Positions 1 through 6,000 of a stretch of DNA of 32,000 bases are shown here, piece after piece; position 1 is the first letter of the stretch, and each line of letters starts with the position of its first letter. The stretch is taken from assembly GCF_013177435.1 (NCBI RefSeq), contig NZ_CP053627.1, forward strand, positions 1,620,001 through 1,652,000. Direction: 5' to 3'. Source of the stretch: Xylella taiwanensis (GTDB taxonomy: Bacteria; Pseudomonadota; Gammaproteobacteria; Xanthomonadales; Xanthomonadaceae). Made by a program: the position numbers.

Positions 1-3000
1 TGAAGTAGAAACCGACCTCAACGTCACCTTCGTTCCATCAGTCAGCGTAGCTAGATAAACGCCTGGTTTCATTTCTTTTAAAGGGACATCTCCGGCCAAT
101 TGCTGTGCATAGTTTTTAATATCCTGATCAGTTAAGGCCTCTGATTTAAACACCTTCACATTACCTGCCTTATTACTTCCCCCTTTCACTTTGGGGTCAT
201 ACGGGATGGCTTTGACATTGACATTGCTTCGATTCAACAGCGATGCTTGCAGCAACATCGCATGCAAGCACCTAAAAGAAGAAAATCCATCGCGTTTAAT
301 GATTTCACTGACGCAGTGTCAAGCCAATCAAACAACCTCACGTCCACTCATAATAATCTTCTCCATTTTCGCCTTCTCCTTTAAACACCCAGACTGCTAG
401 GAATGGACACTCATTTATCAGAACAAACCAAAGTCCTACCGCTCCCAGATCCACTTCTTCATCGGAAGCAGGAAAAGATGTTCTGAACATCTCTACTAGT
501 TCCTCAGTGGTACCCTCGATAAATTCTCCCTTTGTATTGCAAATTTTGAGCCGTCCCTCATCAAGTAATTTCCCGATGATCAACAAGAAATCGTTTTTTC
601 TTTCCTCAAACGAGTCAGGATCCACTTCTCCAGCAGGAATTCCATAGGCATTCCCTATATCACTCCAAAGAAAATGAAACCCCCCCCCTAAATCCTTACA
701 AATAAAATCTATTTGTTCTTGAGTTAACATCCAATCACCTCTCACCTAAATTTAAGTTCAACTTTTTTATTTGTAATTTCTCTTAAAGAAGGATTATTGT
801 CTATATCAATCGTCCATCTTGCTTTAGTCAATTCATTTGAAGAAGAAGCAGACCTCAAGGTCACCTTCGTTCCATCACTCAGCGTAGCCAGATAAACCCC
901 TGGCCTCACCTGGTTTAAAGGCACATCTCCGGCTAATTGCTGCGCATAGTTTTTAATATCCTGATCCGTTAAGGCCTCTGATTTAAACACCTTCACATGA
1001 CCCGCTTTATTACTTCCCCCTTGCACTTTGGGGTCATACGGGATGGCTTTGAACTCCACGCCTCCAACCACTAAGCCATCCTTTGCATTGCCCTTCCCAA
1101 TCACGCCTTTTACGTTATCCAGGCGCTTTATGCGCTGTTGCTCTAAAACACTGCCAATCGGCTTTGAGGTTAAATCAGGCCCTTTAGGATTGTGTGCAAT
1201 TTGATCAAGGGCTTGTTTCTCGGCTTTGGCAATGTCATCGGCTTTGCCGGAGATCCAGCGGCCTCCGATTTTGGCCGCTCTCACACCGTATTTGGCCAGG
1301 TTGCCGATCATCACCGAGGCGATGTATTCCTCGCCTTTTTCTAGGGCCACTTGTTCTATGGTCTTTTCCCCTGAACGAATCGCTTTGATGTCTTGCCAGG
1401 CGTCATAGGCGGTCAGGCCTTTATCGGCTAACCAAAGGGCCCCAATGAGCACGGGGACGAAGACCGCGTTGTTTTCGGTTTCCAGCCGGGCTGCTGCACT
1501 GCTCACCGCCGCTTCGCCACCGGCGGCGGCGGTGATGCCGGCCACCAGGCTGGTGACGGTATCGGTGCGCTGTTGTTTTTCCGCGGCGCTCAGGCTGGCG
1601 ACGTCGGCGCCGGTGGTGCGGTCTAGTAGGTTATTGATGACCACGGCCGCCGCCGCGCCAGTCGCGCCGGCGCCGCACCCTTGGCCTTGGGCGGCAGCAC
1701 CAGCGCAGCCCAGCAGGCCTTGCAGGGCGGCACGGGCCGGTTCGCTGTCTAGTTGGTCGGCCAGTGTTTTGACTTGGCTGGCGCCTAGGCTTTGCAGGTA
1801 GTTGACCGCGGCGCCTTGAAGCATTTGGGTGGCGCTGCCGGTCACGTGGCTGCCGGCGGCCAGGTTCAGGGCGGTCACAATCGTTCTGCCGGTGCCGCCT
1901 ACGTCCCAGGTGGCGTTGTCTTGGAGGCGCTGCTGGAGGGCCGCGATTAGGGCCGGGTCGCACTACCGCCGCCCTACCCTTGGGCGGCAGCGCAGCTCAG
2001 ATTTAGTTCTTTTACTCAATGCATGATTTTTCTAACGCACCTCACTTGGAATCTGCGTCTCTGGCTTGCGGTATGAATGCAGTTTTCTTTCAAATTCCCA
2101 TTGCTTTAAAGGATGCGTTTTACCATGCATTTCTTTATAAACCCATTGTTCGGTTTTTTTAATGGCATCAAGAAATTCTTGATCTAATGTCCACGCCTTA
2201 GAGTGAATCACCCAGGGATTTTCTCGATATAAAGCAACCGTGACGTCGAAGGACTGCTCTATAGTATCTTTACCCTCATACCGGGCGATGAGGCTGTCAA
2301 TCTCTGGCAAAAAATAACACAGCGCTGATCCCAGTGTCGGCACCGTCATCCCTGTATCAGCATCAAGGGTTTGCCCAGATTGCTCATTCAGAAGCAGATC
2401 AATGCCAATGACAAAAATGAAATTCTTTGATGAGAAGCGCGCTTTTTTCAACCTTCCTCGCGGATCTACAGGATGACTTTCAACAAAGCCAAATTCAGCA
2501 AGCTTGCGATGGCATTCGACTACTCTTAACCACTCTTTTTCCACTGTGAGGGATTGCTTACTCATGGTTTCACCATTTTTCCTGTAGCTGCGTCATAAAT
2601 ATATCCATGTTTCTCGAGATAGGTTATTTCACGTCCAAAGCCGGTCAGGGTTCCATCTGCTCTAAGCATATTTCCTGATTCTTTTGAATTTAGAATAAAA
2701 GGTCCACTTTTTGGTGTTGTTGCCAGCACAATGTCATCTCCTCTTTTTATAGCGGCATCCAGGAAGGGTTTATTGACCTGTTGCCAGAATTTCTCTGGGC
2801 CTAATGCGGCGTACAGACTATCTGGGGTATTCAGTAAATTAAACGAGCCAGGTTGTATTGGGCCATCAATAATCATTGACTTGGGCAAGCCCAGTTCTAG
2901 ATTGATGATGCGATCAGTGTCATCTAAAAAGGCTCCAAGCACCGTGGTGGTCTTATCAGGATTAGCCTTGATGACCACGCCACTGGTTGTTCTGATTTCT

Positions 3001-6000
3001 GCCGGCAAGAGGTAAGCGGCACCATCTCGATAGAAGTGCTGAGCTTGTTCCGCACTGGCAATCGCCTCCGCACGGCCCAGCTGATAGGCCTTAGACGCGG
3101 CCATGCCTTCCAAGACATCTTTACTCAGATTGATGCCTACGTTGGTAAGGGCCGCACCGCCTTTGGCCACGCCGCCCACCCCCAAGACAACTGAACCAAT
3201 ATCCCAGACCACGGTGCCAAGATCGCGACCGTATTGCTCGGCATGCTGATTACCTCCAACGGTCAGGGCCGTCTGCATGCGATCAATCTTGTGATCTATC
3301 TCCTGAAAAACGCTGTCGCCTAATTGCTGGCGTACTTCTCGGTTGGTGATCAGCTCCTTCAGGCCACGAAGGCCAGCCATGGGGTTGGAGAGAAATTGCA
3401 CCAGTCCTTGAATATCGCTGAGGCCTGATTCGGCTAAGCCTTTGACTAATCCAACGCCCGTTAATCCTTCTTGTCTTGCATAAATGGAACCCCATTTGGC
3501 CGCCACTTGCAGCGATTCCAAGAGGCCATTGGCCGCTGCAAGCTCCTGATTCATTTGCGCGTTTTGCTGGGTGGCAAGCCAGTTGTTATCCAGCGCCGCA
3601 GTGGCTGCATGGGTGGCGCTGGCTGCATGGGCATCGCCGGCGCTGGCAATGCCGGTGACCAGGGAAAGAATCAGGTTGCGTTTTGCTTCACGCTGCTGGG
3701 CGGTTTCATCGGGCGTGGTGGCGCTGAATAAACCGGTGAGTACGCTGGAGGCCGCCGCGCCCGTGGCCCCGCTGCCGCAGCCTTGCTGGCTGGCCGCGGC
3801 ACCGGCGCACGCCACGATGGCATGCAAGGCCGCGTGTAAGGGCGTGCCTTCGGTGAGTTGCCCGTTGGCGACCAGGTGACCGATATAGGAGGCCCCTTGT
3901 TGCTGTACGTAGTTCACCAGCATGGTGTTAGCTACCTCGCGCGTGGCGGCGCTGGCATTGCCACTGATGCCGGCGGCTAAGGCGGTAGTGATTTGCCGAT
4001 AGGTGCCGCCGGGGGCCCAAGTGGCGTTGTCTTGGAGGCGCTGCTGGAGGGCCGCGATCAGGGCCGGGTCACGTTGGTGTTCGGGTTTGGCGCGTTCGCT
4101 GTCTAGGGCCTGTTGGGTTTGGGTGGCTTCTTGAGCGCGGTTGTTAATAAAGGTGCCGACTTCGCGCTGTAGGCCGCTGACGACGTTTTATGACTTCCCG
4201 CTTTATATTCGGATGAGGTTGGTTTTAGATTTAAACCAAAAATAACCCATTGATGATTTAGGCGAGGCGACCCAAACACACCCTGCTTTATTCAATAGCC
4301 TTTAAATAAAACACCACGATTTATATTAGCAATCATACCCGCACCGGCACCCCCCCTTGGGGACGCGGCACCCGTGCAGCAACACCACTCACCTCAAGAG
4401 GCAGTGCAATTACTGAGGCATCATCAAAAACACCATCCGTAATCATCCTCACCATGTTCTCCTAATCCTTTATATACCCAGACGGCGACGAATGGACACT
4501 CCTCAAACACTAACCAAAGTCCTTTCTCTAGCGCTTCATCCGAAGCAGGAAAACATTGTCTGAACGGCTCCAGCACCTCCTCGGTGGACCCCTGCATAAT
4601 ACGCTCCTCCTTTCTGTGACCAAGCTTGAAACGACCCTCATCCATTAATTTCCTCAGTACAAAGAAGAAATCGTTTTTTCTCTCTTCAAATGAATCCTTA
4701 TCTATTTGCGTAGAAGAAATTCCATGTGCATCCCCTACATAACTCCAAAGAAAATGCAAAGGCTCGTCCGACCTGTCCGGGTCACAAATAGAATCTATCT
4801 GCTCTTGGGTTAACATCCAATCACCTCTCACCTAAATTTAAGTTCAACTTTTTCTTTTGTAATATTCATCAAAGAGGGGTTATCTTTGATATCAATCGTC
4901 CATCTTGCTTGAGTCACCTCTTGTGAAGTAGACACAGACCTCAACGTCACCTTCGTTCCATCACTCAGTTCAGCCAGATAAATACCTGGCTTCACCTGCT
5001 TTAAAGGCACATCTCCGGCCAATTGCTGTGCGTAGTTTTTAATATCCTGATCCGTTAACACCTGAGAATCAAACACCTTCGCATTACCCATTTTATTACT
5101 TCCCCCTTTCACTTTGGGGTCATACGGGATGGCTTTGAACTCCACGCCTCCAACCACTAAGCCATCCTTTGCATTGCCCTTCCCAATCACGCCTTTTACG
5201 TTATCCAGGCGCTTTATGCGCTGTTGCTCTAAAACACTGCCAATGGGCTTTGAGGTGAGATCAGGCCCTTTAGGATTGTGTGCAATTTGATCAAGGGCTT
5301 GTTTCTCGGCTTTGGCAATGTCATCGGCTTTGCCGGAGATCCAGCGACCGCCGATTTTGGCCGCTCTCACGCCGTATTTGGCCAGGTTGCCGATCATCAC
5401 CGAGGCGATGTATTCCTCGCCTTTTTCTAGGGCCACTTGTTCTATGGTCTTTTCCCCTGAACGAATCGCTTTGATGTCTTGCCAGGCGTCATAGGCGGTC
5501 AGGCCTTTATCGGCTAACCAAAGGGCACCAATGAGCACGGGGACGAAGACCGCGTTGTTTTCGGTTTCCAGCCGGGCTGCTGCACTGCTCACCGCCGCTT
5601 CGCCACCGGCGGCAGCGGTGATGCCGGCCACCAGGCTGGTGACGGTATCGGTGCGCTGTTGTTTTTCCGCGGCGCTCAGGCTGGCGACGTCGGCGCCGGT
5701 GGCGCGGTCCAGTAGGTTATTGATGACCACGGCCGCCGCCGCGCCAGTCGCGCCGGCGCCGCACCCTTGGCCTTGGGCGGCAGCACCAGCGCAGCCCAGC
5801 AGGCCTTGCAGGGCCGCACGGGCCGGTTCGCTGTCTAGTTGGTCGGCCAGTGTTTTGACTTGGCTGGCGCCTAGGCTTTGCAGGTAGTTGACCGCGGCGC
5901 CTTGAAGCATTTGGGTGGCGCTGCCGGTCACGTGGCTGCCGGCGGCCAGGTTCAGGGCGGTCACAATCGTTCTGCCGGTGCCGCCTACGTCCCAGGTGGC

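Follow-up and report, generated by a model that had tools for sequence, protein, structure and literature searches.

The window analysed here is a stretch of 32,000 nucleotides (nt) of the Xylella taiwanensis genome (contig NZ_CP053627.1, positions 1,620,001 to 1,652,000). It contains the 3' end of a contact-dependent inhibition (CDI) locus, in which a cdiA-like gene is followed by an array of orphan cdiA fragments with immunity genes; all genes of this array lie on the minus strand. We describe a joint within the C-terminal region (CT) of CdiA, at the end of the motif AIPYDPKV, after which cdiA diverges sharply from the first orphan. The segment that follows the joint is called the tip. The locus comprises the following features:

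14177-15607, minus strand: N-terminal part of cdiA with ESPR and TPS, a separate open reading frame (ORF) that overlaps the 3129-aa ORF
4828-14217, minus strand: main cdiA-like (filamentous hemagglutinin) ORF, 3129 amino acids (aa), ending in ...VELKFR and a stop, with Fil_haemagg_2 (Pfam) on the called product
5554-5568, minus strand: ETENN pretoxin motif, counterpart of VENN and first boundary of the CT, with a second copy in orphan-1 at 1468-1482
5110-5138, minus strand: 29-nt tract TCAAAGCCATCCCGTATGACCCCAAAGTG, with the joint right after its last base (5110/5109)
4831-5109, minus strand: tip allele A, 93 aa, CT residues 149-241, with all family-invariant residues
4424-4816, minus strand: immunity gene A, 130 aa from ATG (MLTQEQID...), DUF596/Imm-NMB0513 type, with a GAGG Shine-Dalgarno overlapping the cdiA stop
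2562-3923, minus strand: orphan-2, with an ALDNN motif, a different entry domain (E2) and an unrelated toxin
2032-2565, minus strand: orphan-2 immunity gene, 177-aa protein
742-1962, minus strand: orphan-1, with the pretoxin region, ETENN, a cdiA-like CT up to the joint (1024/1023) and then tip allele B (745-1023)
338-730, minus strand: immunity gene B, 130 aa, DUF596
1-215, minus strand: tip-only cassette C, cut by the window edge, beyond which it runs on to ...VELKFR and then to immunity gene C

The TPS secretion domain and the filamentous-hemagglutinin repeats expected of a CdiA protein are both present, although spread over two ORFs. After ETENN, the CT of cdiA extends for 241 aa to the stop, and the start of the immunity gene lies 12 nt past it, so that the pretoxin motif, polymorphic CT and immunity gene of a CDI system occur together. 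Orphan-1 (ETENN), whose C-terminal 180 aa equal the X. taiwanensis protein P0006 and whose relatives are nearly all from Xylella, and orphan-2 (ALDNN) are orphan modules of the known type, consisting of a 3' fragment of cdiA with a VENN-type motif followed by cdiI. The homology of cdiA with the other orphans stops at ETENN or beyond.

We compared cdiA and orphan-1 without gaps (window positions 6045-4831 against 1959-745). Upstream of the joint there are 14 differences in 936 nt and 2 in 312 aa, with no aa difference along the 148 aa from ETENN to ...AIPYDPKV; the tip has 43 differences in 282 nt and 22 in 93 aa (Fisher p = 1e-17). The first-pass annotation of this stretch had described the same jump in divergence and placed it correctly (5110 and 1024), the first tip codon being at 5109 in cdiA and at 1023 in orphan-1. 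The maximum chi-square breakpoint was found at 5092/5091 (chi2 96.6, compared with a maximum of 34 in 2000 permutations; p < 5e-4). The sliding identity and dN/dS (ratio of nonsynonymous to synonymous substitution rates) analyses that had been proposed as a check gave a concordant picture. Nucleotide identity stays at ~99% up to the joint, falls to 75-88% in the tip, recovers to 95% over the stop/start junction (4862-4803) and drops to 58-77% along the immunity gene. The dS values jump as well, with 0.048 before the joint, 0.286 for the tip and 0.84 for the immunity gene, and dN/dS is below 1 throughout (0.09, 0.5 and 0.31, respectively). The immunity proteins A and B, which had been estimated to be about half identical, share 79 of 139 alignment columns (~57%). 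Since synonymous divergence jumps too, local selection alone does not account for the pattern, and the two sides differ in ancestry: the change of similarity at AIPYDPKV marks a true recombination joint, which lies within the CdiA toxin domain. The GC content decreases in steps, from 0.687 in the pretoxin region to 0.564 in the entry domain, 0.495 in the linker and pre-joint segment and 0.405 in the tip (0.443 in the immunity gene). The GC drop previously noted at the joint does exist, then, but the biggest step is at ETENN.

The joint recurs in the array. The 29-nt tract that precedes it is exact in all three copies of the window (187-215, 1024-1052 and 5110-5138), and in a five-copy alignment the two copies outside the window show a one-base difference. 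The third fragment, as had been noticed, begins nine codons before the joint (homology from window position 215) and carries a third tip allele, a mosaic in which A-like, B-like and private sites are interleaved downstream of the joint. Beyond the window edge the array was followed in record L001, whose positions 1-10730 are the exact reverse complement of the window. Past cassette C it continues with an Endonuclease_NS_2 orphan and then with cassettes D and E, each with a DUF596 gene. This one locus holds five tip alleles (70-84% identical) and five DUF596 immunity alleles (53-78% identical), and three of the five pairs (C, D and E) are tip-only cassettes, with homology starting within ~13 nt of the K codon of KAIPYDPKV. 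Cassettes C and E start at the codon before this K and have the same upstream spacer; cassette D is preceded by a different gene and starts ~13 nt further upstream. The 5' edges of these cassettes amount to two independent ones (C/E and D), which are ~13 nt apart at most and precede the joint by 29-42 nt. The identical spacer before C and E indicates that the immunity-to-cassette junction was duplicated. All three cassettes start ~140 codons after ETENN and are thus outside the usual definition of an orphan module, yet a DUF596 gene follows each, and in every one the ORF is open to its stop and the immunity gene is intact. Directly 5' of the homology edge of cassette C there is a tandem ATGTCA ATGTCA (window features 213-224 and 245-269), and the spacer before this cassette also contains a 7-bp inverted repeat (GCTTGCA...TGCAAGC).

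Upstream of the tip, the CT of cdiA is divided as follows:

5332-5553, minus strand: putative entry domain E1, CT residues 1-74 (AVFVPVLIG...GRWISG)
5239-5331, minus strand: helix and disordered linker, CT residues 75-105 (helix 76-91, KADDIAKAEKQALDQI; linker 92-105, AHNPKGPDLTSKPI)
5110-5238, minus strand: pre-joint part of the toxin fold, CT residues 106-148, with helix 1, strands 1-2 and the start of a variable loop, ending in ...KAIPYDPKV

CT residues 1-74 are 100% identical at the nt level between cdiA and the Endonuclease_NS_2 orphan (L001 11665-12840) up to RWISG, where that orphan passes into Endonuclease_NS_2, which is unrelated. Being common to two unrelated toxins in one array, residues 1-74 delimit the entry domain, and we infer that they serve for entry into the cytoplasm. 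In an AlphaFold2 (AF2) model of the full CT they form four helices and a hairpin (63-74), with a predicted local distance difference test (pLDDT) score of 60-69. The entry domain E2 of orphan-2 is likewise found with two different toxins, since in P0012 and in many X. fastidiosa orphans it is fused to the toxin whose partner is DUF596; entry domains and toxins have thus been reassorted in both directions. A single N-terminal CT module combined with different toxin domains, the hallmark of bipartite CTs, is therefore seen both for CT 1-74 and for E2. The linker shows pLDDT below 50 (residues 92-105 of the full CT; residues 1-19 of a separate 158-aa model), and in X. fastidiosa orphans, as in Microvirgula, a linker of the same type is attached to a different entry domain. 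From there on, the full-CT model presents one confident fold (107-240, pLDDT 83-93), whose pre-joint elements are a helix (107-122) and two strands (131-134 and 137-142). The 158-aa model (pLDDT 83.8; predicted template modelling score, pTM, 0.78) has a helix at 21-39 and strands at 48-51 and 54-59 before the joint, here at residue 65. It places the joint (148/149) in a 15-residue loop after strand 2, and the full-CT model agrees. According to these models, the toxin fold is predicted to span CT residues 106-241, with the joint inside it, in a variable surface loop between strands 2 and 3. The first-pass annotation had taken the ~150 aa before the joint as one conserved entry domain; instead, the entry module is limited to residues 1-74 and the fold begins at ~106.

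A profile search for the toxin retrieved 239 cluster representatives. In the listed proteins of at least 300 aa that reach the C-terminus of the profile, the match starts at position 163 or earlier, at least 30 positions upstream of the joint (~195). The carriers of the domain include CdiA/FHA proteins with PT-VENN or DUF637, and in a Rhizobium PT-HINT toxin the domain comes right after ...VWVHNNC, from the end of helix 1. Since the pre-joint segment is kept together with the tip across the family, AIPYDPKV is neither a domain boundary nor a motif of the family: the loop is rich in indels and has AIPYDPKV as one of its states, others being TPRGS, TPPGS, PYDRNV and a deletion. All 20 family-invariant residues (e.g., R205, S208, S210, R217, W218, T219, E237 and K239) are in the tip, and for this reason the active site is probably located there.

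No toxin family was found in Pfam for the CT or for ten diverse relatives, and a search of PDB by sequence gave no match to the toxin. With Foldseek, the two confident AF2 models (the 158-aa model and that of the full CT, entry module included) reached at best E values of 0.19-0.20 in PDB, to unrelated proteins with TM-scores of at most 0.25, and neither had a structural match there. The resemblance of the tip to RNases of the BECR type, suggested in the first-pass annotation, found no backing in Pfam, PDB sequences or Foldseek. Foldseek gave no match to the BECR-fold RNases (barnase, EndoU, colicin E5/D, RelE), but small divergent BECR domains can escape this program. A genome scan of other genera, which returned no Xylella itself, identified 3' fragments of the toxin cut at residues 95, 100, 108, 111 and 124 of 158. 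Scan matches starting at residues 65-69 were discarded as cuts at the joint, as most of them are alignment breaks at the indel-rich loop and the pre-joint homology goes on upstream. In P0069, a protein of 230 aa from another genus, hemagglutinin-repeat-like sequence leads straight into the toxin. The changeover, at ...IGGNRYSTRVYESQ, comes a few residues after the joint position, and the protein looks like a deletion fusion. In records L003 and L004, a contig labelled Vagococcus encodes a PT-VENN-type CT that has few differences in the tip from a Salmonella enterica one, and the 200 aa displayed upstream are identical; Vagococcus being a Gram-positive genus, the assembly is probably contaminated or mislabelled.

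As for the partner of the toxin, immunity protein B belongs to DUF596 (PF04591; 37.5 bits, cut-off 25). Immunity protein A scores 20.5 bits, below this cut-off; precomputed Pfam annotation lists DUF596 for all five immunity genes, and A has a weak sequence match to PDB 2O5H (E = 0.0033). No exact protein record was found for a 135-aa GTG-start form of the immunity ORF; the 130-aa ATG-start form was found. DUF596 corresponds to Imm-NMB0513 (PDB 2O5H), which is paired with Ntox20 and Ntox7 (Zhang et al. 2012, PMC3482391). Ntox20 is described as a mostly beta domain with a conserved Arg, present on type V secretion system (T5SS)/filamentous-hemagglutinin proteins, and with Imm-NMB0513 as its partner in gammaproteobacteria (PMC3482391). 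This fits the Xylella toxin, compared by description only and with no match in a Pfam version that contains no Ntox20 model. Ntox20 is thus a lead to the identity of the toxin and not a result, the agreement being in the published description and the immunity pairing.

The mosaic structure of these alleles is not limited to the array. The survey of relatives for further tips sharing the AIPYDPKV joint, recommended in the first-pass annotation, did return other switches in X. taiwanensis, even if the motif proved to be a single loop state: P0001 equals cdiA up to VEFKA and is divergent after it, and P0012 has the shared pre-joint block followed by another tip. An exact-protein look-up gave no record for P0001, and P0012 comes from a contig of only 2.2 kb. 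Among 20 unique Xylella toxin-immunity pairs, 107 of the 190 pairwise comparisons (which are not independent) had a significant breakpoint; the main clusters were around the joint (39, within ~20 nt), on strand 2 (13) and where PLK ends (11). Divergence among Xylella alleles is highest in the pre-joint segment (mean p-distance 0.63), and strand 3 and helix 2 are conserved (dN/dS 0.04 in helix 2, at dS 0.40). In the same 20 pairs, immunity distance correlated with the distance in toxin strands 4-6 (Mantel r = 0.40, p = 0.001) and in the toxin C-terminus (r = 0.24, p = 0.007), and not with that in the pre-joint segment, strand 3 or helix 2 (r ~0). The divergence of immunity follows, in other words, only the last ~55 residues of the toxin. 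Consistently, units identical up to PLKE have different C-terminal parts and quite different immunity proteins. X. fastidiosa has arrays as well (L029 1-12200; L031/L032 10000-12700), with up to nine toxin/DUF596 units, some of them truncated. Most of its truncated cassettes begin at FDK, where helix 1 ends; one begins together with helix 1, and another at strand 2. Before the truncated cassettes there is a common spacer (...GCATTAAATAAAC...) with a GC-rich hairpin.

The explanation that we consider probable is that this is the 3' end of a CDI locus with its orphan array, in which toxin and immunity alleles are shuffled by recombination, the AIPYDPKV joint being one mosaic boundary within a fold. 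The CT is built in three layers: a putative entry domain of 74 aa, a helix with a disordered linker, and a putative toxin domain of ~135 aa from an uncharacterised family, which would be neutralised by a DUF596 (Imm-NMB0513) immunity protein. Toxin domain and immunity gene exist as many paralogous tandem alleles. As to the direction and mechanism of exchange, we infer that homologous recombination or gene conversion shuffles them through short conserved tracts, which may include the 29-nt tract and GGSNK, the helix 2 block, ARWTIDI, the stop/start junction and SFEERKNDF. In cdiA and orphan-1, the 5' part would have been recently homogenised, leaving downstream older, different alleles of the 3' two-thirds of the toxin and of the immunity gene; the three further cassettes keep only the 3' part of the toxin and the immunity gene. 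Exchange of this kind would reshuffle the parts of toxin and immunity protein that bear specificity, with delivery, entry and catalytic residues staying fixed. Judging from the allele comparisons, immunity specificity most likely resides in the last ~55 toxin residues, interleaved with conserved, probably catalytic, residues. The earlier idea of a small terminal unit exchanged together with its immunity gene is in part retained, as such a unit is repeated in five pairs, three of them tip-only; its 5' limit, however, lies inside a fold and is not a domain boundary.

Several points weigh against this explanation. There is no direct evidence of present-day exchange, and the tip-only cassettes could be inert remnants. 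As cassettes C and E have a single, duplicated junction, there are few independent edges, and many of the pairwise breakpoints, besides their lack of independence, reflect the hyper-divergent pre-joint segment beside a conserved block. Physical linkage with the immunity gene confounds the Mantel signal; contrary to a linkage effect, though, the segment nearest the immunity gene correlates less than the preceding one. Tip and immunity identities are ill-matched in X. taiwanensis (84% and 59% for B-C, 77% and 78% for A-E). Across the five X. taiwanensis alleles dN/dS is below 1 in every segment, and we do not claim positive selection. Finally, the packing of helix 1 and strands 1-2 on the tip is read from pTM and pLDDT only and not from model coordinates. 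Some of these points would favour another scenario, in which the tip-only fragments are decaying debris of insertions and deletions in the array, the joint is the chance end of a gene-conversion tract, and no unit smaller than the CT is used or selected. This is unlikely, although several observations fit it: 3' toxin fragments are cut at many positions in other genera, VENN-less fragments are known at other CDI loci (PMC3150448), the fragments here have no evident secretion or start context, and besides the duplicated C/E junction, the 6-nt tandem duplication found at it suggests illegitimate recombination. Debris would hardly be expected, on the other hand, to retain in every cassette an ORF running to its stop and an intact immunity gene, or to have edges clustered rather than scattered (X. 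taiwanensis has them at the joint and X. fastidiosa at FDK), and the fine-scale mosaic alleles require repeated exchange among copies.

It is very unlikely, instead, that the 93-aa tip is a self-contained small toxin and the ~148 aa from ETENN to AIPYDPKV a conserved entry/translocation domain, with the joint as the boundary between them. Such a division would agree with the 100% identity of these 148 aa between cdiA and orphan-1, with three cassettes starting at the joint, with the location of all invariant residues in the tip and with the helix-plus-beta-meander layout from helix 2 to the end in the 158-aa AF2 model. Nevertheless, the Endonuclease_NS_2 orphan ends the entry domain at residue 74, the disordered linker is at 92-105 and not at 148, and helix 1 and strands 1-2 are confidently modelled in one body with the tip (pTM 0.78). 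Moreover, the ~40 aa before the joint accompany the tip behind unrelated N-termini (CdiA, PT-HINT, the E2 entry domain), and in X. fastidiosa this pre-joint segment is highly polymorphic. Divergence of tip and immunity gene in place, under diversifying selection after the duplication of orphan-1 from cdiA and with no recombination, is hardly credible. Many tip changes alter charge, and dN/dS is 0.5 in the tip compared to 0.09 upstream; but the rise in dS is 6-fold at the joint and 17-fold for the immunity gene, no segment reaches a dN/dS of 1, and the mosaics formed by the tip alleles are shared by other copies and by X. fastidiosa. A bolder extension of the shuffling explanation, which we regard as doubtful, is that the sub-domain cassettes act, much as in pilS/pilE, as silent donors from which gene conversion alters the expressed cdiA, switching its immunity specificity, and that the toxin has a new fold and activity. 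If so, the delivery domain, the entry domain and the catalytic core would be kept while immunity specificity switches, and as the immunity gene of each cassette is already present, the cell would be protected throughout.

Other observations concern the integrity of cdiA and its surroundings. A run of ten C (window 14192-14201, minus strand) sits in the 41-nt overlap of the ORFs at 14177-15607 and 4828-14217, indicating that cdiA is split there by a frameshift; in another strain, its counterpart is a single product of 3525 aa. The poly-C frameshift could reflect phase variation or a sequencing error. No ShlB/POTRA gene was found among the window ORFs upstream of cdiA (15600-30200), where a cdiB (ShlB/FhaC-type transporter) was looked for; cdiB may be encoded elsewhere in the genome. 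The upstream neighbours in this interval are housekeeping genes (LysE, PrmA, FAD oxidase, 2-hydroxyacid dehydrogenase, two amino-acid permeases, aldolase and HAD hydrolase). Within the array, neither the toxin of orphan-2 nor its 177-aa immunity protein had a Pfam match. The Endonuclease_NS_2 orphan (L001 11665-13274) shares the pretoxin region, ETENN and the entry domain with cdiA and has a 145-aa immunity gene, and a second Endonuclease_NS_2 remnant is found at L001 15491-15802. Between the orphan array and a second ESPR/TPS hemagglutinin gene (L001 16806 onward) there is a ParE-type toxin-antitoxin pair (15881-16467). This second hemagglutinin gene has the same orientation and is also called in two pieces (456 aa and 3121 aa).

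If exchange is functional, it maps the ~55 residues that set immunity specificity in a widespread toxin family without annotation or solved structure, and provides natural chimeras for dissecting toxin-immunity recognition. It would also bear on strain competition in an important genus of plant pathogens. The genome paper of X. taiwanensis counted hemagglutinin-family copies as adhesins and left contact-dependent inhibition unmentioned (PMC8176220), and no paper on sub-CT cassettes of Xylella CDI systems was found in the literature searched. Orphan modules, bipartite CTs and entry domains common to several toxins are already known, whereas in that literature we found neither the sub-domain grain nor immunity-linked tip-only cassettes.

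The closest parallels come from other CDI loci. CdiA-CTs are bipartite, with a domain for cytoplasm entry on the N-terminal side and the toxin domain on the C-terminal one (PMC9424206). The same holds here, where CT 1-74 is common to two unrelated toxins and E2 carries this toxin in other orphans; unlike the boundary between such domains, however, the AIPYDPKV joint is found 74 residues beyond it, within the fold of the toxin; in our case, both the entry function and a membrane receptor for it are putative. Orphan cdiA-CT/cdiI modules downstream of cdiBAI were described by Poole et al. (2011, PMC3150448), who also reported related toxins (EC93 o1 and UPEC536, 76%) with far more diverged immunity proteins (35%), and VENN-less fragments without cdiI genes at other CDI loci. 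As in those orphans, toxin fragments and immunity genes form tandem pairs here, and the pretoxin motif is still present in orphans 1 and 2, as is homology further upstream; unlike them, cassettes C-E have neither (E/D)NN nor the entry domain, and their toxin domain is missing its first third, yet the immunity gene is intact. In type VII secretion system (T7SS) loci, tandem immunity paralogues beside a polymorphic toxin are reported to evolve by homologous recombination among themselves (PMC9484751). In that case the recombining copies are immunity genes, while here the 3' part of the toxin is repeated together with the immunity gene.

A similar pattern is known outside CDI systems in the nuclease colicins (E2/E9 and E3/E6 types), where divergence is likewise concentrated in the 3' end of the toxin gene and the adjacent immunity gene, with nearly identical sequence upstream; diversifying-selection and recombination models for these colicins were reportedly put forward by Riley. 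Unlike in the colicins, the diverged segment here includes conserved, probably catalytic, residues, and the alleles are found as tandem chromosomal cassettes and not on separate plasmids. The diversity of CDI systems is usually considered at two levels, the whole CT swapped at VENN and the recombination of entry and toxin domains. The Xylella array would add a third, finer level, in which parts of one toxin domain are exchanged together with the immunity gene and cassettes store only such a part.

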